From NCBI GenBank assembly GCA_951406725.2, contig OX597820.1:90520001-90584000 (forward strand): a stretch of 64,000 nucleotides of DNA. The letters run 5' to 3'. The translations under genes were made by a program, and so were the position numbers. Origin of the DNA: Octopus vulgaris. Taxonomy: Eukaryota. Below the pieces are notes generated by a model that ran no database searches, was not told the origin of the DNA, and saw only the letters and a list, made by a program, of their open reading frames with translations. Below, in pieces: positions 1 to 59,090 of this stretch. The number at the start of each line of letters is the position of its first letter. Position 1 is the first letter of the stretch.

Positions 1-1613
1 CTAAATTTTTTATTTAAATTTTTTATTTTATTTTATTCTTTTTTTATCTTTTATTTCATTTTATTTTATTTATTTATTTATTTATTTAATTTTTTCTTTT
101 TTTAAGGAAAACTTAATAATAATTTAACTTTACTTGAAAAGAAGATTTCTAACAGTGCACCGAATCGCTTGTCCAATGGTTATAAAGGAAGCGCGCCCCT
201 CAGGAGGCTGCCAGCCTGATGGCGACAAATTTTCAAATGGCAGAATATCTTCCCCGAATACGAACCTGGAAGGTCACTTAAACGGGATTTGTCCCAAATT
301 AAGCCCCCAAAGTTCACCACCACAACGACCAGAAAATCAAAAAAGTAAAAGAACTAAATGGAACCGGGAAGACTATAAAGAAGTAATATATGCTTATTAC
401 TTTGCATTAAGTAGGCCAACTCAAGAAAAACACACCGCAAACTCCTACAGAATTTGGAGGAGCCGGAATCCAGCTAGCAGACCAAACCTGGATGAAAACA
501 GATTAGCAAATGTTAGAAGAGATATCTTCAGAAATATCAGACTCACAGATGCAGAATTAACCTTTATTAAAAAAGTGGTAGAGAATGACCGAAATGTAAG
601 TCAGGAAAGAAATAACGAAGCTGAGGAGAGGAATGTTGGGCTACAAGCATTGACTGAAAGGCGACCATCTGCCGAATCGACTCAAGATCCTGAAGAAGAA
701 GGAAAATATGACCCCAGGAAAAACAGCCCGGAAAATGATGTCGAAAAAGAATTTGAAAATCACATGTTTGTTGAACAACACAGAAAATCTATCATTGAAA
801 TGAAGCAAGAAGTTCTGAATGAGCTTGCAGTTATAGGGCATAGAACTATGAATGATAGGGAACCACTCCATAAACTCTCAAATGCACACCAACATAAAAC
901 ACAAATAAAAATTGGCAACTGCGTTACACAGGAAATCATACAACAACAAAATCCCGATCTTAATAAATTAAATGAAATTATTTACTCTGTCGCTAAGGTA
1001 ATCGAAAGACGCTGTTTAACACCCAAAAAGCCAACAATACCAAAATCGAAAAGAAAATCAAACTGGAGGAGTAGAATTGAAATTGAAATTGAATCGTTGC
1101 GAAGGGAGATATCAATATTAACTGAGCTAATCTCTGGAAATGATGTAAGATCAAGAAAAGCAGGAAGATTGTGAGAAAATATGGACATTCAACAAGAGAA
1201 GAATTGATGTCAGCGAAAGAAACACTTAAACAAAAAGTTCAAACAAAAGCTCAGAGAATACGCAGATTTGAGAAAAGAATCAAATTCTACAAACAAAATA
1301 AGATGTTCAAATCCAATGCCAAATCATTTTACAGGGACATAGGGAAAGAAAAAATAACCATTGAAAATCCACCCCTAATGGAAGAAGTTGAAAACTTCTG
1401 GAAGGAGACTGGAGTGATGAGAAACTATACAATGAAAATGCAGAGTGGATCAAACGCACCCAAGATGACTACAAAAATCTACAAGAACAGGTATGGGAAG
1501 ACATCTCAATCGCCGACCTAAGGAGAGCACCAACAAAGGCTCATAAGTGGAAATCCCCTGGTATTGATAGAGTACCAAATTTCTGGCTCTTATCACTCTC
1601 GTCCGCACACAAA

Positions 1614-2453
1614 ATGTTAGTAATACTATTTAATAGTATTATGAAAGACCCGAAAAAAACACAACATTGGATGGCAAATGGTATTACTTACCTCCTCCCC
1701 CAAAATAACAAAACGAAAGACCCAAAAAACTATCGGCCTATAACATGTTTATCTACTACCCATAAGATCTTGACATCTATTCTAGTAGAGAAAACATATA
1801 CGTTTATGGAAGAGAATAACCTCTTTCCCACTGAACAAAAAGGATGCAGACGAGGCTCATACGGATGCAAAGATCAGCTCCTAATTAATCGCATGATCCT
1901 TGAGAACTGCCATAACAAGCGAGGAAATCTCAGCTCTTCATGGATTGATTATAAAAAAGCCTTTGAAAGCATACCACATTCGTGGATCCTGAAATCGCTG
2001 GACATTTTCAAAATTTCTCCTGTCATTTCAGATTTTTTAAAGTATAATATGTCCCTATGGAAAAGGAAGCTCCAATTATATCATTCTAATGGAGTATTGC
2101 ACTCAAACAACATTAGCATAAACTGTGGAATTTTCCAAGTTGACTCACTTTCACCACTAATATTCTGCAAAGCACTAATACCACTCTCAAGTGAACTGAA
2201 TACAACAGGATATGGCTACAAAATTGACAACGAGAAAATAAGCCATCTATTTTATATGAATGAATTAAAGCTATATGGCAAAGATGATGAAGAGCTTGAA
2301 GGATTATTGCATACAGTGAAAGGATTCAGTGATGATATCGGGATGGAGTTTGGCCTTGAAAAGTGTACCAAAGCCACTTTTAAGAAAGGGAAATTGGTAA
2401 AGTCTAGTTCAATCGAATTAGATGTCGAAAGAGTAATAAAGGAAATTGAGTAG
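1614..2453 (+). pseudogene. Reverse transcriptase domain of the R4/Dong element, catalytically dead
   Basis: RT motifs are present, but the catalytic YMDD reads YMNE (2253-2264). An in-frame TAG at 2451-2453 lies just before EQTYKYLG. Confidence 0.9.
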
Positions 2454-2510
2454 GAACAAACCTATAAATACCTAGGAATTAATGAAGGCTCTGGTATCCA
2501 GCATGCAAGC

Positions 2511-3778
2511 ATGAAAAAGAAAGTTAGGAAAGAATGTTATAGAAGAGTCCGAACAGTCCTGAAGTCTGAGCTGAATGCATATAATAAGGTTTTAGCCATA
2601 AATTCCTTAGCAGTACCAGTTGTTCTCTATAGCTTCAATGTGCTTAACTGGAATACTAGTGAAATAATGAAAATTGACAGGAAAATCCGCAAGCTACTGA
2701 CTTGTAATAAGATGCACCATCCAAAGGCAGACGTGGATCGCCTTTACCTTCCCAGAGGTCAGGGAGGTCGAGGTTTGATCCAGCTTGAACTTACATACAA
2801 AACCACCACAATCGGACTGGCCAAATACCTTGAAAAACATGAAAGACCTAAAAAACTTCACCCTATTCTCAAAGAGAGCAAAAAATTTGCTGCTGATCGC
2901 TTAGATACCCACCAGATTCAGCAGGCTGAAGGAAATGCACCAACTGCAGCTGCAAAGAAAATAAAATTAATTACAAAGACAAATGCACATGAAAATTTAG
3001 CTAGCAGATGGGAACAGAAACCTCTCCATGGCAAGTATGTGGCCCGTAGCAAACAAACTGATGTTGACCAGAAACACACGCACCAATGGTTACGAAGTTC
3101 AGGGCTAAAAGCAGAGAGTGAAGGTTTCATATTAGCTGCTCAAGACCAAAGCTTATTTACCCGGAACTACCAAGCCAATGTGATGAAAAATGGAGCTGAC
3201 CCAAAATGCCAATTCTGTAACGATGAGATTGAAACAATAGACCACCTAATCTCAGGGTGTAGAGTCTTAGCACCTGCAGAATATAAAGCAAGACATGACA
3301 GAGTCGGCCAGTATTTACACTGGACAATATGTCGGCATTATAAAATCAAAACCACTGACAAATGGTATAAACATCATCCTGAAGCTGTGACTGAGGGAGA
3401 AAATGTGTCGATTCTATGGGACTTCCCCGTGCAGACCGACATGACTATAAAAGCCAATAAACCGGATATCATAAAGAAGATTAGACAAAAAGGATGTGTT
3501 TATTAATTGACATGAGTATTCCCTGTGATCACAATATAGCGGCGAAAGAATTTGACAAGATTAGTAACTATAAAGACCTGCTAATGGAAATTGAAAAAAT
3601 GTGGCATCTCAAGGCGACTGCAGTACCAGTGATTGTAGGATATCTAGGAATGATAAAAAAAGGTACTGAAACCTATTTGAAAATGATTCCAGGCTTACCA
3701 TCCCTACAGGGAGTGCAAAAAATCGTATTAACTGGAACGGCTCGTGTACTGAGAAGAGCACTATCGCTGCGAAAATAA
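2511..3778 (+). pseudogene. Thumb / CCHC zinc knuckle / PD..D restriction-like endonuclease part of the R4/Dong ORF (frameshifted near 3480)
   Basis: AINSLAVPV, DVDRLYLPRGQGGRGL, KPLHGKY, AAQDQSL, CxxC..H..C, KPDI and LIDMSIP..K..YKDL motifs across two ORFs. Confidence 0.9.
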
Positions 3779-4265: not shown

Positions 4266-5252
4266 GAAATGAAAGAGGACGTACTGACTGAGGGCTGTGA
4301 GTACTTGCCAAGCACCTTTTCTCAGTGTACGCTCGATCCAGCATTCTAACTTCGTGAATAACTTGAGCTACGGGAAATCTTGTTTAACAAGCAGCGGCCA
4401 TACCTACTCACTGTCAAGGAAATGCTGGAGATGTCGCAGCTACAAAGCATGTCTGTGCATCATTAGCCTCAGCATGCCTGATCCTCCACACACTGACTGT
4501 TGATAGCAGATAGAATTTCTGACGGGTAGAACAAGTCCATCGATAGAAAGTGGAAGAGCAGGTGCTCTAGCTTGATCAACCAACAAGCTGGGCAAGAAAC
4601 GACGGTCGGGCGTTAATAGATGACGGAAACAATATACGTTATTTTACCTCCACCGGACCAGTCAGGAACAGCATCCTCTCTGCTTATTTCTGAATGAGAC
4701 TGTCACCCTGCTCATCACCTTCCCTAATTCTTATTCACCTGGAGTTCCAGACCAGGCTCCGAGCATTTTAAGCAGTTCATTTTACCATCGCCCCACGACG
4801 CTATCGGATATGTACCTGAATCTTCAAGTATCAAACTACAGGCCCACCAATTTCTGGTTAATCTTTGCTCTTGTCACGTCTTCGTACTTCGTAAAGGAGT
4901 GCCATTCAGTTAGATGTATGAGATGTCCTAGACTACTACGGTGACGTCGCTCATATACGCCGACGCCAAACTTCCTCATCGTAGTTAATGAGAGATGCCC
5001 TTCGAAGCATCTAGCCTCCACAGCAATAACTCGAGCGCAAGTACGTACAGAAGAAGAGAGCACGGGCGTCCGTAAGGGACTGAATATTTTATGCTAAACT
5101 ATGTCCGATACGTGACCATTTACGCTGACCACCGAAAAAATGTCACAGTACATTATTTTTTTTCTCCAGTCTCAGGTTGTATTACTGAATTCAGATGAAA
5201 AGTCTCATACATTGTATTTAATTGTTTAGTCATGTCAATCAAAGATTCCATA

Positions 5253-5499
5253 ACGGGAAAGTTTACGAAAATGAACAAAAGGCGAAGGCAGGTGGAGTAC
5301 AAACAAAGACATGTATTAGTATAGCGCTCAGGAATAGAATTAGAAAATGTCTTTTACGTTTCGAGCCTACGCTCTTCGACAGAAAGATACACAGAAAAAA
5401 ACAAGGAGAGAAACAAGGAGAGAAAAAAAGGAGAGAAAAAAGGAGAGAGAAAAATGCGTGTAGGAGTTAACGAACTATCATGGCGTCCTGACTTCGGAC
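5253..5499 (-). mobile_element. 247-bp Penelope-LTR/retrozyme-like non-coding insert with 11-bp TSD
   Basis: AAGATTCCATA is duplicated at 5242-5252 and 5500-5510. Removing the insert plus one copy restores the Tudor reading frame. The insert contains a hammerhead motif. Confidence 0.8.
5350..5387 (-). ncRNA. Minimal type I hammerhead ribozyme motif (Penelope-type, variant core)
   Basis: Minus strand reads UCUUU-CUGUCGA-A-GAGC(GUAG)GCUC-GAAA-C-GUA-AAAGA. Stem I is UCUUU/AAAGA, stem II is 4 bp, and stem III is loop-less with palindromic ACGU. The core is CUGUCGA instead of CUGANGA. Confidence 0.7.
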
Positions 5500-8024
5500 A
5501 AGATTCCATAGTCACTTCATCAAGTATTTGACAGTAGAAACAGTCTCTGTCTACAACCCATTTACAGAGCGGATCATATTGTGTATTGACCTTCAGCTGT
5601 AGACATCCCATACTTTTGGCATAATACTTTACTCTGTTTGCTCATAACATATCTTCTTCTCAAACTTCCTGTTTTTAAGCTTTGTTTCTAAGAGATTGCA
5701 TAAAGGATTCCTTTGTTTGTCTATCATCAGGCAACTTTTTCTCAGAAGAAAACTGGTTCTCAAAAGTGTGTTCAGTAGAGTCCTTATGATGTTGATGACG
5801 GGATGAAAGATAGGTCGTTTGTGCAGGAGACGATGCACCCACTGGTTACCCTTCAATACTTTGAGGAGACTGAGAATGAGATCTGAACGGAGATATTAAA
5901 AGCGAGCTAGCAGATTTTACAAAGTTTGACTTTGATATAGTAGTGCTATTTAAAGATTAACTTCTGGGAAAATAGTCATTAGGAATATTCTTCTCCAAGC
6001 TTTCTTCAAAGCAATCATTAACATAGCTGCCATCACAAGTATAAACAACGATTTCATAGACATTTTTGGAGCAGTTTTCTAATATTTGCACACATTGTTG
6101 CAGATGAACAGACTAAGTTTGTCATTGTCTTTAATACCACATACACCAGGAAGATAGCAGTGTAAGGCCTGTTTAGGATAAGGAATGAAATGCACCGGAA
6201 ATGGCTGCAGTTATAAATTATTAACATTCTCAGAGTTATCATAATCTACAAAACAAAAGCTATATATCTGCCATCAGCAGTGGGGCTGATTATCTGACCA
6301 CCATACCACTGGTTGTCCTGGGAAAACTTGGCCGCAACCATTTTTTTGAGGCAAGGATTATAACACTTATGGTCGTCTTTCATTTTCAAGTAAGAACTAA
6401 ATCCTGCAAGGAAACTGATCTATACAGCCTCCAAGTATTAGTGGTCGATTGTACCAAAAGCTTTCGAGTGAATCAAATCTATCAGGACCCCACCCATACT
6501 ACATTCTTTACCTTTCCGCTCCATAAGATAAAGTGTGAGATGGGAGTTGTCGTGGATAGATCTCTTAGGGATACTACCCGTCTGTGATTTGCCGATAAGG
6601 ACCAGCACCTTGGTCAAAATGTTGTATTCCGCGTTAAGCAGAGTTGTATATCTAAATTTATTTATTTGCTGTCCCCGGGTGCTTCCGTAATAAGACCACC
6701 ACTCCACGTCTCATAGCTCTGCTTATTCTTCCGTTCTGCTACCAGTTGCTGTAGACTTAAACCAAAATATCACCGAACTTGTTTGATATAAGAATATAAA
6801 ATTCGAAGGTAGACCAACCAGCACCAGAGTTGTCTCCCTTCTGCAGCTCATAATCTCGCCCATTATGCCTTCCGCTTTTATCGACATTTCACAAGATTCC
6901 GTGTCTCTGAGGTAAGGGGTTAAATTCACCCCCGTCCCCGGCTAATCGTATGATCAGTATATTTCACCGAAGTGCCCTAAATTCAGTACACATCTCCTTG
7001 AATTTGAGAAGTATTCGTCCTGTTTTAGTCCATCAAAGATCGAATTCTAGCTTTGTTGATACGTAGCACCTCCGCTACACTGGCCTATTGAACTGCATGT
7101 ATTCCCTCGTGTTTCAGGGCATGCGCCTTAGCTCTGAAAAACGCAAACTTCTTTGGTATACAATCTTTGTCAATCGCGCCGCCAGCATGTCAGTCGCTAT
7201 GCCTCTTGTAAGTGCCTTTTCTCACTACTTAACAGGTCTGAGGTCTGTTAGCCTAGGTGCCTCTAACGCTGTTTCATTACTAAACACAAACATATCTACT
7301 CTAAGAACCCTTTTTTGGGGTTATTCCCCGTTGGTAGTTGATGATTGCACCCGAGAACCTCCGATAAGCTAACCTGCTAACTCGGTCACTGAAAGCTTGA
7401 CAAGTTAGAAAGACGCATTCAGTTTGCAGTACCCGAAACCCTGCCTATGGACACTATCTAGCTCATTCGTACAGATCACAAATTTCTGGTCAGTGCTGAT
7501 GATAACTGCATTTTTTGGACAACTTATGCTACCTCTATCTACAGCCCGGCAAATTACTCAATCTAGATACGATATGTAAAACCCGATGCAGTTTACCCAA
7601 TTCCACATTCCACATTCGACCAGCTGAAAGCGACTGAGCAGGTTCACTTTTCTATCGGCTAAACTAACTCTATCAAGATGAGCGTTCAATATGGCGGTTC
7701 AATCGCTCACTAGCACTAAAGAGAGAGGAATTCCGCTACCCAACCCAATCGGGGGGAGGAGCACACACTAACTAGTCTAAAAGTACTTCATTCTCTGCTA
7801 CACGTATGCAGGACTAAGAATTTACAATCCGGGTCTAGAAAGATTGTCTATAACTCAACATGCAGGCTTTCCAAAATAGCACTGTCTCACCACCTTTCAT
7901 TCCGGGCCGTCACATCCATAGTTACGGACGTGAGGTTGTTCGGAAGGAGGCTTCGCATCCAGGTGACTCGAGGCCAGGAAAATTTATAAAACCCACTCCT
8001 AAATCCGCCATGATGATGGAAAAA

Positions 8025-8098
8025 CTACTGCTACAGCAACAACAGCAACAGCGACGACGACGAAAACGATGACGACGACGACTACGACGACGACGACT

Positions 8099-8129
<31 letters not shown>

Positions 8130-8152
8130 TGATGATGATGATGATGATGATA
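8025..8152. repeat. Compound trinucleotide microsatellite (CAA/CAG)-(GAC)n-(GAT)n
   Basis: Directly visible. Confidence 0.9.
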
Positions 8153-9459
8153 GATGGCTGGTGTCTGTATTATGGATGATAGAAACAAAGTAATAAAGAA
8201 AAACAATGAAACTAGTTGTCATATGACTACGATAGTTGAATTTATAGCATGCAAACAAGTGTATGACTAATAGAGTCGCCACTCGCCAAATTCAGAAGAT
8301 CTTAAAATATAGATTTTTTGGTGCTAGAAATCGCCCACAAATACTTATACGAAAATGTACACAAACGTTCACGATTAATTGCTCCCGATGCTGCAAACGC
8401 ACGTAAGTGATTCGTGGGGCTGGCGATGAAGACAAAATTACTACAACTAGACGTAATAGCGTCGATTATTATGATAGTTATGAAAATCACTACAAAAAAT
8501 GTTACAAACATCGGCACACAGATTGAAAATTTGAAATTTAGTTTCTTTCCTGAATAAAAATAAACTATTTTGGTAAGTCATTATTAGCCACACAAGCAGT
8601 ATTACTTCATAATAGCAATCAGTTTATCTTGCTTAACGAAGATATGCAGTAGAAAGTCAGAAAACTGTGATATTCGTCTCGAGAAAGCATCCCGTTTGCG
8701 AGACATAGAGTGCTAAAAGTCACATGAGTATTTCAGCAGCAAACGAAATGTGTTTGGTGAAGCGCTGAAATTATTAAATCCGGATTTCTGCTTATTGAAA
8801 GCGCTGTCACCTATCTCAAACAATGTCGTCGAATAACATTTATTCAAGAGAACGGATGCGTTTTTTGTGTATCAGATTTTGTATGCCGCTATATCCGAAC
8901 TAGACATGTGAAAATCCTCAATATAAAATTGTTCACCGATGTATGCTTATCTCGTAGCGTCTGCATTTGTACTTAAGATGGTAAATTAATTCCTCTGCAC
9001 ACAGTATCTGCTGATTGTATATTTCTGCATATATTTCAATGGGCATGTATTGAGTTATATACACACGTAGTATGAAATGGAAGTAAATATAATATATGTT
9101 TATATATCACTGTACATGCACTGTTAAACAGAGGGTTTATATATGCATACAGGTTCTTATGCTCTCATTTCCGAATAGGGGAGTTCAAGTAGTGTATATC
9201 CATATATGCGAATAAATGTTCTAATGCCATTTGCCCATATCTGATCTGCATTATGTTATAGAGAACATAAATATAGATGCACATCACTGGATTCAGTGAT
9301 TGCAGAAAAACAAGTGCATGATCATATCGGTGTTGTCAGAATGAATTTGTGAATGTAAGTACTCCGTATATGTTCATCATGGTTATGCATGTTTTTTTAC
9401 AACCTAATTAAATGAGTGCACAATATACATGTAAGTGTATGGGTATTCATGAGTAGGGC

Positions 9460-31919: not shown

Positions 31920-34060
31920 TTGGAACTAATGCTAATCGGGAAAGCAGTATGGGCGTCAGTGCCTACCTCTACAGCACGCCACATCACTCGGCAAAGGTGA
32001 GAGGAGAGGGGAAAGAGCGTTGCGAAATGCCAATAGCAGTCCGCGGAAATTTGGATGTGATGACGGGGGAGAAATCAACTGGTCTGGCTGGTTTGCCTTA
32101 TGAGTTTTACTTTTATATGCCATGCTTGTTTGGTGGCCTGTTGATAGATATCTAAGTCAACTGGTAGCAGTACGGGAAAATCCCCAATTTTGTGAGTCGA
32201 AGAGCGGTGGCACTGCCGAGAAAGGACTCAAACAGGGGTTCAAATAGAAATTTTCCGGCCCGAAATGATGCAGAGCGTAGACCTCAGAATTTTTGCCAAG
32301 GTGTAAGCAAATATTTAGGAACTTCTCGTCGAGGAACTGATTGATGATGCGCACACATACGCCATCCCAAGGATATCCATCTACGAAAACGTCCAACCCT
32401 AGCGGTACATCATAGACACTGTGAGTAGAGAAATTGACATGGGAGTAGGGACTGATCAGTATGTATCAATATAAAGCCTTCCAGTGGGTCGATCACCAAT
32501 AATTGGTTACCGTTCTCACGGTGGTTTGTTTAGGTCCTTTTTCTTGTAGTTTGATCGCCGCAATATAAAGCGACATCAGCTCAGTAGTTCGAGTGAATGG
32601 TTACCTATTGGAACTATTCACCATCATGCGCTCGGTCTGACAAGGGTGTCCTCTCTATCACTTCTGTATGTACTTGATCTAGAAAAATAGTGCTGAAATA
32701 GGAGGCGTTGCGAGACATTCCACACCAAGTAGGACGTAGGAGAACCGTGTCAACATGTGTGTACGACGTCACCACATGGTCAGTACTGCTCTAAAAGAAT
32801 ACGTGGTAGGGGCAGGAGCAAGAGTTAACTGAGAAAAGAGAAGCAGGTCTATACCGTGCAACAGCGTCGTGAGACGTTGAACGGAGGAAACGATTAAATT
32901 GTTTGGCGTGCGGTTTGGTCTGGATCTTCAGATGGAAAGAAATGGGACGAGGTGACGAGCAGTATAGCCAATCTCACCCATAAATGGGCCGAGACGCAGC
33001 TGTCCCTGAATTGTCGAACCGAGGAGGCGAACGCTTATATCGCATCGGTTATATATTACCACCTGACTGTCATGCTTTGCCTCCAATTTATGTCAGAGTA
33101 AACTGGAGTGCGCATGATTTCGCTTTCAGTGGATGGGACTCTTTGCACTGGTCAGGTTCCTCATTTGCTGTCAACATCCGCTGAATGAAGGACTGGACAT
33201 TCCGTACCCGCCTATACGCAGACACGCGTTGAGTCTAGGAAAGCTCCACTGCTTCATAGACGTTGAGCAGGTGTAGTTATCGTTTGTCAGACAGGATTTT
33301 ACATAGCATGTCCCTTTCACTCAGTTGCAGTCCTGATTGAAGCAGTAGTTTGGGGCAGAGCATGTGGCATCTTGAGTGTCGTCAGGTGCTCAAGATCTTC
33401 TGGCAGACGTTCTCGGAAAGTCCCTAGGCGTCGACAAAATGAACTGGTCGGTCTATTACAGAGAACATTCGGGCCAGAGACTATGGATAATTTCCTGGCA
33501 GTACTACCAGTGGGCATTGAGGGCTCCGGATAAAACCTAGAGGGATGGAAATGCCGTCAGCCGCTTTTGTACGACATGCTCGTAGGGTGGCGAAACCATT
33601 TTGCACGGTCCTGTCCAGTGCCCGAGTATTGCTGCATTTTTGGTCTATGTCGACCGGATCCGGCTATTGGCAGAATCAATTGTGAAGATTGTCCCAAGGT
33701 CATCATGTGGCCGGGATGCGAAATCAGTATTTCCTTGTCTGGTGGTCTTAGCAAATGTGATTTTGTGGTGAAGTAAAATAAAAGGGATGAAAGCCCTCAT
33801 CAACGTTTTCAAGTAAATCTTAAAAAGGAATGTGAAGGGAGAGGGAAGTACTCTTTCTTCTAACCTGTTCTGTCCCTTCAGGGTTCTGCATACTACTTCA
33901 CTTTCGAGCTCTCCTCTTATCATCCTGTATAATTACCTCAGTTCTTTCCGTGTCCTTTCCAGCTTCATTCGTATTCTCTTCCCCCAGTTTGGATCTTTCT
34001 TTTCCTTCTCCTTCTTTTCTTTAACCGCCTTCTGCTTGTATCCTATTAGGTCAGCTACAA
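31920..34060 (+). mobile_element. Decayed Tx1/L1-like LINE (RT to 3' end)
   Basis: GLAGLPYEFY (32080), KAFQWVDH (32473), VRVNGYL..SV*QGCPL (32585-32655) and PLNEGLDIP (33178). Confidence 0.75.
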
Positions 34061-39799: not shown

Positions 39800-41130
39800 A
39801 AATTTTAGTGACAAGCTCTACATGCGTTGAAGTTTTGACAGTTAAATCTGTCCGAAATGCGCACACAGCCAGGAAACTATTTTCCACGCTCTCATTATAA
39901 GACCGAATATTATTCACATTTAGGTTTGTCTAGCAGCTGTAGTCACGGGTAGGACAGAGTTATCTATCAGCGAATTCCATGGCAAAAAATGGCTTCTTTT
40001 GACGGAGGTGGGTCAGGAGATTTCCTCTTCCTGCTAATTATTGTGAAAAAATTTGTGAAGTGAACTGGACGAAAAGGACTGAAGAGAAACACTTTCTTAT
40101 TAAGTTAGGTTTATCAACTTTACCAAGTTACAATTCGCATGTGTAATCTTCTACAGCCTTAGTCCCTTCATTGCTGAAAAGGATTTTCTTGGGGGTGAGC
40201 AGCTATGGTCAACTTGGCAGTACAGAAGTGCTGGAACAAACATCAAGAATACCATCACAGCTCTCTGAGCAATACAGTCGCTGGATATATCATCATGACG
40301 TCTCATAGAGGGTTGGATAAGAGCGACGACATGCTCCATGTAATTCTAGTCATCGATGAAAAAAAAACTGGTGGGAATTTTTCAGGAGAGCTCCCCGTTA
40401 GGTCATACATAATTTTCAGAAATCCATGTTTGCCAGTGATATCGATGCACGATAAGTATTCCTGGTTCAGGAGAAAGTTGGGGTGTTTGTCAGCCACGAC
40501 TGCCCAAGATGCAAGAGCAGCGATGAAACCATCTTGCACTGACGTGTGGAGTTATGTCGAAGAGTTACCTTCACTAGTAAAACGGACCCGGGTAGCAGTC
40601 GACTCCAACGCAGACATCACCTACACCCCACCTTCCAATGGCCGAGAATGGCAGTCAGATTTCCTATCTCTGGTGACTAAGGTAAAAGGGTGTGTGTGGT
40701 TGACGAAATAATTTAAGATAGATTCTTTTAATTTCGACCAAGCCCTTGTCAACGTTTTAAAGGTGAATGGATAGTAATGATGAAGAGAATGGTCGTTTCC
40801 CTGTAAATCTGTAAAACTTTGGTTGAATATAATAAGAAAGGCTCGAATGAGCGGACTCTTTCAAGCATGTGCTTGTAGGCTAAAAAGTATGGAGAAGATA
40901 GTTACCCTCATCATGGCACTGCTGATGAGAATGGTAATTCGAAAACTGTGACTCTCCTTGGTTACCACTGAGTCATTTTCCCTCCTGCTGGGAAATTTTG
41001 TTTGCTATAATTTTCTTACTAATTGTTATTGCTTTATAGTTTGCACATATTTATATAAATCCCCACTGTATTTCGTATTGTGCTAAATGCATATAGGTGC
41101 AACCCGTGTGGCCAAAAAAGAAAATATTAG
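39800..41130 (+). mobile_element. Two decayed Tx1-like LINE 3' ends
   Basis: CPKCAHSQETIFHAL (39849) and DVWSYVEEL..ITYTPP..FLSLVTKVKGCVWLT (40540-40710). A terminus-like gtgcaacccgtgtggccaaaaaagaaa lies at 41097. Confidence 0.6.
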
Positions 41131-57433: not shown

Positions 57434-58299
57434 AAATCTTGTATACAAAAATAGAAGTATCATTTACTAGTGCATCAATCGCGAAGAAAGGAAGGATGAA
57501 TAACTTTGCCCAGCCGTGAGGAACGTCTAGAAAAAATGTAGCCCTTCCGTAATCTACAGATGCCAAGGAAAGCAACATGGAACTATAGTAGCTCTCTGCA
57601 ACAGCAGTCAGAAGGCTGGTAGGATGACTCCTGTACTACCCAGGTGTTAATGATGATATACAGAAATATGTGGGATGACGTGTGAGAAATGTCAAGATCA
57701 CAATTGTAACTCCTCATAGAGATCACGACATGCGAATAACCATGCTAAAGAAGCACAGGGAGAAAATCTCTGTAAAGTCCAGCCCCTAGTATAATAGAAT
57801 GGGAACGCTTTTCCTAAGATGTGCTTGGTGTCCCAGATTTCTGTTTCATTCGATTAATAACTCGATTGGATATTCACTAGACTAGCACAGATATGCCGTG
57901 TACGTTGCTTACATTTTCAGATAGCTGGTTACTCAGACCACTACTTTGTGACATTTATTGTTAACTTAGAACAGACGAATATGCAAGGACCTGGTTACTG
58001 ATAGATAAATGCTTTCTTGACAGCGCAGAAAGATTTCAAGGAAAGGGGTTAGAATGGAAGTTAAGCAAGAATTAGCGAGAGCGATCATCAAGACGTGGTG
58101 AGACTATTTAAAAGAAAAATTAGAGATACATCTGTCAGTTTTAGCAAAAAGATGACTATAGAAAACAATATAGCAGAAAAGAAAGTATTTAGTTGCTTAG
58201 AAAAAGCGCATAGAAGACTCATCGCAAACAATGAATGACAAAAATGATACTCGACCACTTCTTCGATGCGAAACACGAAGATTAGATGTCATAGAAAGA

Positions 58300-59090
58300 A
58301 TGTATCTGAGTGATCTTTTCTAGGGAAATTTCACGCCAGAGACATGGATAGCTTCCAAATTTTCTTGGCGCGGTAGTGCTACAAAGCTAGAAGGAGTATT
58401 ACTTATTCCAGAAAAGGTCTTGCGATAGGGAAGCACTAACAGACTTACATACCCGAGACGCACACAGAAGTTTGAAAACATCTTGCAAGCCATTGTTCAC
58501 TGTCTATGCATTAGTGGATTGTGTTCTTACCTGTGTTCTTGTGTCAAACACCTACTGTCACATGTAAAATGAATTCAACTATCTGCCGTGTTTATAGTGA
58601 AGATCGACGCACCAACTTCCTTCGGCATCTACCCGGCCTGGAGGCTATGGCGAAATAGATAGTATGCTGGACTCATCTGAAAGATGGTGAAAATTAACAA
58701 TGTTTAAGGGAGAGAAAGTTGATGGTATAACTTTTAGTAGATTAGATACTAACTTTGAACGTGAGTGACAACATGAGTGAGTCTGACTTCACATACGCAG
58801 AGTTTGATGTTTTTTTCTGAGTTGTAGGAAAGAAACTGGGGAGAGGTCTCTTTCTATGCCTTGGAGATGAGAGAATAATCTGGGATATATTCTGTCTGCT
58901 TGTGAATCCCCCGAATTACACTAAGTAAAATACCCTGCAACTTGGGACATATTTATATATTTATTCAAATTCCATCTTTACATTTTTGTTAGGTCTTTCC
59001 ATTTAACCTTATCGTTGTTGATTCTCCTATGATTAATGAGACACATTCTGCAGATTGTGTTCAGAATAAAATGTCGTCATAATAAAGGTA
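58300..59090 (+). mobile_element. Decayed Tx1-like LINE 3' end
   Basis: TYPRRTQKFENILQAIVHC resembles the zinc-finger region at 39849. LEAMAK*IVCWT follows. Confidence 0.45.

Follow-up and report, generated by a model that had tools for sequence, protein, structure and literature searches.

Templated sequence insertions of class 2, which have been described from human cells and as polymorphisms, have neither a target-site duplication (TSD) nor a poly(A) tract in the accessible text of Onozawa and Aplan (PMC5110952). In Drosophila, telomeric elements without long terminal repeats (LTRs) have captured genes of the PIWI-interacting RNA (piRNA) pathway (TART-A/nxf2, piwi and aub; PMC13534243), and in the cases covered by the accessible part of that source the fragment belongs to families that are active and multi-copy, the host gene is targeted by piRNAs and the captured region is fast-evolving. 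Chimeras made by template switching include LTR-mediated retrocopies (PMC5131818), tripartite chimeras of long interspersed nuclear elements (LINEs; PMC2104539) and L1-RNA chimeras (10.1101/2025.02.02.635956); as far as the available text of these accounts goes, they are co-insertions, with microsimilarity at both joins in the LTR cases and joining at the L1 5′ end in the L1 chimeras. Here we describe a locus in a 64,000-bp stretch of Octopus vulgaris DNA (the window; G000:C7:90520001-90584000, within a genome of 2.8 Gb) in which a piece of a Tudor-domain gene lies inside the reverse transcriptase (RT) region of a LINE. No paper on this locus was found in the open-access literature.

The insert occupies window positions 6421-5162 on the minus strand, a span that also holds a later short repeat, and corresponds to a 1,002-nt piece of an Octopus gene encoding RRM, MYND and four Tudor domains. 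It is one decayed copy, lacking the intron, of a 1-kb internal stretch of mRNA that was probably reverse-transcribed as a patch at a DNA break in an already dead LINE, a break that we infer from the anatomy of the junctions only. The order of arrival, namely LINE, mRNA piece and then short repeat, is well supported and very likely correct. The event is thus an ordinary retro-insertion, real and well-resolved, and capture of a defence gene by a LINE is not supported.

That a host Tudor coding fragment lies within a LINE RT had been proposed in a reading of the letters alone (the sequence-only reading), and this proposal holds. The extended-Tudor motifs that it quoted are present in the minus-strand translation where it had placed them, and PF00567 (TUDOR) matches two pieces of the window with E values of 7e-4 and 5e-3, both under the curated cut-off; the second, partial Tudor unit alone gave no Pfam match when read in the correct frame. 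A DNA search with window positions 5520-6420 returned two places (2/2 candidates), the window itself and C2:175134252-175135154, and the copy on C2 is an open frame of 514 codons whose intact exon matches PF00567 with an E value of 1.3e-29. The larger part of the insert is 88% identical to this exon, and the last 91 nt are 84% identical to the next exon of the same gene. Across the whole insert, which spans residues 899-1233 of the O. bimaculoides protein, 6 stop codons in 332 codons and 2 frameshifts were counted. The piece has probably decayed neutrally and likely does nothing now.

The parent gene thus located is a multi-exon gene of ~40 kb, with exons across C2:175126088-175165618, and is unlinked to the contig of the window (C7). 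Its protein is 95% identical to an O. bimaculoides protein that carries the NCBI label 'tudor domain-containing protein 15' and in which Pfam identifies RRM, MYND and four Tudor units. Judged by its domains, the architecture appears Vreteno/TDRD1-like: RRM, MYND and several extended Tudor domains are shared with Vreteno/Tdrd1 (PMC10711660), although in the accessible part of that source insect Vreteno combines the RRM with 2-3 Tudor units and vertebrate Tdrd1 has four units and no RRM, unlike the parent with its four Tudor units together with an RRM. BLAST ranked Argonauta first, then an annelid Tudor protein, followed by a snail RRM-MYND-Tudor protein and vertebrate TDRD1s at a weak 98-116 bits. 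A role of the parent in transposon defence through the piRNA pathway is likely, as suggested by its domain architecture only. Other multi-Tudor genes were observed at G000:C8:42748828-42762203 and C15:59118892-59119539, with open frames of up to 1,264 codons and 25-32% identity to the parent protein; these are possible Tudor/TDRD6-like paralogs.

Both LINE flanks align in order to one intact second open reading frame (ORF2) of the family, and they are collinear, with a small gap, in comparison with 23/23 distinct relatives spanning the site (33 loci, representing 23 distinct copies). The two flanks are therefore one LINE copy with a small deletion, and not two unrelated insertions around the Tudor piece. 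The stretch of RT lost at the insert, measured in a relative (L075), amounts to 48 nt or 16 codons, close to the roughly 15 codons estimated beforehand. The LINE does resume beyond the insert as had been noticed, but from 5154 and not from ~5150. The in-frame continuation from LINE into Tudor sequence fared less well, as no fusion frame exists today: one stop codon stands at the junction and a second lies six codons earlier. The 5′ flank gives a weak match to RVT_1 (E 0.002), and in the intact relative L074 ORF2 contains Exo_endo_phos (PF03372), RVT_1 (PF00078) and zf-RVT (PF13966). The host element, whose domains were thus read in an intact relative, belongs to the L1/Tx1 group, with an APE endonuclease, an RT and a C-terminal zinc-binding domain in ORF2. 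The narrower 'Tx1' clade label, which comes from the sequence-only reading, is a putative one, the 12 ORF2 homologs found carrying no names.

The insert is derived from mRNA, since the parent intron was precisely removed. Similarity between the window and the large exon stops at the donor site, and the next bases match the following exon, located 3.5 kb away in the parent; the intervening intron, 3,492 bp long and bounded by GT...AG, is missing with single-base precision. A single exon junction is spanned, the insert beginning inside the large exon and both of its ends lying mid-exon. Moreover, in 2/4 probable RNA runs the alignments of parent-type contigs extend from 6421 as far as 5500, 13 bases beyond the exon junction, and this lends modest independent support to the splice. 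The exact loss of the intron, together with the collinearity of the flanks in 23 relatives, leaves next to no probability that the Tudor piece is a resident decayed exon or a DNA duplication between unrelated LINE insertions. The same applies to an assembly artefact: the stretch is present in public DNA runs under four organism labels (A to D), so that the junctions also occur under three labels other than that of the assembly, and when one DNA run was examined for each of the four labels, individual contigs crossed the 5′ junction in 4/4 and the 3′ junction in 3/4. The run of organism A is maybe close to the source of the assembly, those of B-D are ~2-5% different from the window, and the organism labels may be synonyms.

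The sequence-only reading had offered two routes, templated insertion at a break and template switching between LINE RNA and a germline mRNA. Had the RT of the LINE left the LINE RNA for the Tudor mRNA and then returned, with LINE and insert integrating together in one event, equal decay of both would be expected. Decay was compared at non-CpG, non-degenerate (0-fold) sites of conserved codons, between the insert and the parent and between the flanks and the family majority. The insert differed at 53/606 sites (8.7%, 95% interval 6.7-11.3) and the LINE flanks at 147/816 (18.0%, 15.5-20.8; P=4.5e-7). Stratification by ancestral base, with codons near indels excluded, left 117/654 sites for the flanks and an odds ratio of 2.3 (P=5e-6), and transversions alone gave 49/654 for the flanks vs 18/606 for the insert. 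When the comparison was confined to codons shared by 11 distant ORF2 proteins, the copy in the window differed at 60/337, more than any other of the 33 copies listed. A working master element cannot carry frameshifting indels, and these numbered 20 in 2,125 nt of flanks vs 2 in 1,002 nt of insert (9.4 vs 2.0 per kb; P=0.013). LINE copies whose homologous spans were short do not enter the decay and frameshift tables. The flanks are thus about twice as decayed as the insert, so that the piece most likely reached a LINE that had already died.

Other causes of the gap were considered. RNA editing behind the extra divergence of the LINE was rejected, with sense A>G changes at 6/167 vs 3/208 sites (P=0.19) and an excess that includes transversions, and conversion of the locus by a younger chimeric cDNA found no support, as the junctions show no clear tract of low divergence. 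Differences accumulated since the split from organism D were similar in flank and insert (41/1005 vs 29/878, P=0.39), as were those in organism C, where only the 5′ flank was available (24/511 vs 26/842, not significant), which makes a faster local rate in the LINE an unlikely reason for the gap. Switching of templates during the LINE's own insertion is therefore an unlikely account of the locus. It would explain the sense orientation of the insert and the continuation of the LINE 48 nt further on, and double template jumps by LINEs have been published (PMC2104539, in its accessible text); however, it has to contend with flanks whose constrained sites show about twice the decay and which carry ~4.7 times as many frameshifts per kb, with the lack of any sense A>G excess that RNA editing could have put on the LINE part, and with junctions that have no significant microhomology and no clearly younger LINE tract beside them. 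The likeness to template-switch chimeras thus goes as far as a partial mRNA flanked by retroelement sequence, the difference in ages and the non-significant microsimilarity setting the insert apart.

The junctions were found to agree with the break route. As the sequence-only reading had held, there is no TSD: no repeat longer than 4 nt is shared by the flank ends, and 48 bp were lost instead. The microsimilarity of 7/9 at the 3′ junction was equalled in 11.7% of 5,000 random pairings and is not significant, and that at the 5′ junction is 4/9. The earlier statement that no poly(A) could be seen was too strong, as 8 A's stand at the 3′ junction, 6 of which come from neither the parent nor the LINE. 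Insertion of a reverse-transcribed mRNA piece at a break is favoured because the absence of a TSD, the target deletion, the untemplated bases and the position of both ends within exons are all in keeping with a class 2 templated insertion. With these and with endonuclease-independent retrotransposition the insert shares a distant, still-intact template, spliced cDNA being among the templates described, as well as the lack of a TSD, a small target deletion and untemplated junction bases (PMC5110952, in its accessible text); unlike them, it is old, common to several organism labels, found in a mollusc and bears a short A run.

Several points weigh against the proposed order of decay and against a patch at a break. 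The main caveat is that the ancestral state of the LINE was estimated from relatives only 64-77% identical, no close sister copy having been found (the best 40 of 614 and the best 40 of 1,088 candidates were scored). The intact relatives are themselves 3.7-4.6% off the estimated ancestor at the deep sites, and after subtraction of this baseline the deep-site contrast becomes borderline (P=0.049), although the all-site contrast is still strong (P=2e-4). Stop codons (23/679 in flanks vs 6/332 in insert) point in the same direction without being significant (P=0.23). Of the 100-bp bins in the 5′ flank, the one beside the junction ranks second lowest in divergence (7/64), a rank that may be noise. 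Finally, the junctions are old and mutated, and if the A8 run is what is left of an eroded poly(A) tail, as it could be, ordinary target-primed reverse transcription would gain in favour.

This last possibility keeps the same order, an mRNA piece entering a dead LINE, but would have a prematurely tailed or broken mRNA primed at its A-tail, giving a 5′-truncated copy with loss of 48 bp of target and no duplication. We regard it as a tentative alternative, possible but rather doubtful. The A8 run is at the sense 3′ end, six of its A's are untemplated, and its length differs in the contigs of other organisms, so that it may once have been longer; 5′ truncation, moreover, is normal for retrocopies. 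Set against this are the missing TSD and a 3′ end that lies mid-exon in coding sequence. No AATAAA was found in the 60 nt of the parent before the break and no polyadenylation signal at the expected distance; an ATTAAA of the window lies ~55 nt upstream of the 3′ end and is absent from the parent. In class 1 insertions, by comparison, the tail is 10-40 A's long and the signal precedes it by 10-20 nt in the accessible text of PMC5110952. Like these processed pseudogene fragments, produced by LINE RT acting in trans, the insert is intronless, 5′-truncated, decayed and single-copy; unlike them, it lacks a TSD, a natural 3′ end and a clear polyadenylation signal, and it sits at a target that lost 48 bp.

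Under the preferred reading, a reverse-transcribed patch at a break, an L1/Tx1-type LINE would first have inserted and then decayed over a period about equal to the age of the insert. A germline break would then have opened in its RT region with loss of 48 bp, and a fragment of a germline mRNA would have been reverse-transcribed, probably by a LINE RT acting in trans, and end-joined with a few untemplated bases. The short repeat would have inserted later, making an 11-bp duplication, and the whole locus would have decayed neutrally. Heritable retrocopies derive from germline-expressed mRNAs, and the Vreteno/Tdrd1-like parent is likely germline-expressed. The LINE is likely the landing site and not the carrier. 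In a window so dense in repeats no special cause has to be sought for a landing in a LINE, and the pairing, striking as it is, is expected by chance occasionally.

The sequence-only reading had also raised the idea that a LINE family carried the Tudor piece, an idea that was plausible because a likely piRNA-pathway mRNA fragment sits inside a non-LTR element, as in the TART-A/nxf2 type of Drosophila. The searches did not bear it out. Among the 23 distinct relatives spanning the site, 0/23 have the insert. In the O. vulgaris genome the protein search showed no third copy (best 34 of 59 candidates, after a stricter first look), 39/39 non-self matches to the 5′ junction end on the LINE side (best 40 of 302 candidates), and the DNA search with the 3′ junction returned the window only, this being a weak test that missed even the 84%-identical exon of the parent. 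The insert was single-copy in every search made, with the window locus and the parent the only places found, and these own-genome copy searches are lower bounds. It is accordingly very improbable that a LINE lineage carried and spread the piece against host silencing in the manner of the Drosophila telomeric elements, even with that precedent (PMC13534243) and the piRNA scaffold architecture of the parent (PMC10711660), each as given in the accessible text: besides being found only at itself and the parent, the insert breaks the RT and removes 16 codons. Furthermore, the copied part of the parent is not evolving faster, as amino acid differences to O. bimaculoides number 15/335 in copied vs 8/180 in uncopied parts (P=1.0; two exons compared). 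In all, the insert differs from the TART-A/nxf2 type in its one copy, its broken RT, its arrival after the death of the element and a parent without acceleration. There is a small chance that the locus is what remains of a chimeric element that did not persist for long.

Regarding its age, at the 15 residues that differ between the parent and O. bimaculoides the insert agrees with O. bimaculoides at 7, with the parent at 5 and with neither at 3, which suggests that the insertion occurred near or before the split from the O. bimaculoides lineage. No RNA run was present among the listed runs holding the stretch. In four probable RNA runs (of 10 entries flagged as possible RNA) the listed Tudor pieces are parent-type and the junctions uncovered, which is not evidence of silence.

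Table 1. Features of the chimeric locus (window positions)
Feature	Position	Strand	Basis
5′ part of decayed L1/Tx1-type LINE ORF2, from apparent start codon (8011) through endonuclease to RT motif ending YLEAV	6424..8011	-	tblastn to intact L074 ORF2, aa 78-620; N-terminus-like translation from 8011
Two junction bases, either filler or the parent's first two bases after one C>T change; blunt join lacking microhomology	6422..6423	-	best 9-mer similarity 4/9
Retrocopy of the 3′ portion of the large parent exon, covering most of Tudor unit 3, the linker and the beginning of unit 4	5513..6421	-	808/913 identical to C2:175135155-175134244; PF00567; 2 frameshifts
First bases of next parent exon, joined exactly at splice junction	5500..5512	-	intron C2:175134243-175130752; parent-type RNA contigs cross junction
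Later 247-bp insertion, very high-copy short repeat	5253..5499	not established	perfect 11-bp flanking duplication; 161/184 identical to L078 copy
Remainder of retrocopied second exon; ends mid-exon, 23 nt before parent's donor site	5162..5252	-	76/91 identical to C2:175130750-175130660
Seven untemplated bases (six A's and T)	5155..5161	-	A8 run with last two parent bases; filler or tail remnant
3′ part of same LINE ORF2, traceable to ~aa 925 of 1,145	4284..5154	-	alignment to intact ORF2

A later insertion within the Tudor piece had been recognized beforehand at 5253-5510; its presence was confirmed, but its extent is 5499-5253, the remainder belonging to the 11-bp duplication (first copy 5510-5500, second copy 5252-5242). 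The summed contig depth of this repeat exceeds 2 million. Further copies were seen at L078:9377-9802, in L053 and in L080, such units being in tandem in L078. One stretch resembles what we take to be a minimal hammerhead ribozyme core, and the repeat may be a retrozyme-like or Penelope-derived unit; Rfam gave no match in window 5000-6600, which includes it.

Young relatives of the same LINE group form head-to-tail arrays with a period of ~5.87 kb at many places with identical scores (in G000, C50, e.g. L074, as well as C47, C29, C13 and C4), and one unit of the L074 array has an open ORF2 of 1,145 aa; Rfam found nothing in three such loci and ARAGORN nothing in five. More decayed pieces related to the same ORF2 lie on the + strand of the window at 32015-33870, 39810-40762 and 57861-58623. 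Just upstream of the ORF2 start of the LINE copy a trinucleotide microsatellite runs from 8040 to 8160 and may belong to the element, a similar low-complexity stretch being located at the end of ORF1 in the intact relative. Just beyond the traceable 3′ end of the copy, a long, lightly decayed non-LTR element occupies 128-3760 (+ strand), with frames of 348, 353 and 350 aa and C-terminal motifs that presumably resemble those of R4/Dong-type elements with a restriction-like endonuclease. The 15 frames of at least 150 aa in the window are, by eye, retroelement or simple-repeat frames, and the window looks like a gene-poor repeat field.

If this LINE-dense region feeds gonadal piRNAs, an 88%-identical piece would yield small RNAs against a host silencing scaffold, a feedback or anti-silencing link like that of TART-A/nxf2 but in a mollusc and in a different LINE group. 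The locus would then be a genomic fossil connecting transposon-derived sequence with a piRNA-pathway gene. We consider this an improbable outcome; the locus would nevertheless gain much greater weight if it were true that gonadal small RNAs from it target the parent mRNA. As it stands, it provides a clean, dated case of RNA-templated, TSD-less insertion in the cephalopod germline, and it means that the Tudor mRNA was reachable by reverse transcriptase in germ cells or early embryos. The nested series of LINE, mRNA piece and short repeat is, in addition, a usable marker for relationships within Octopus.

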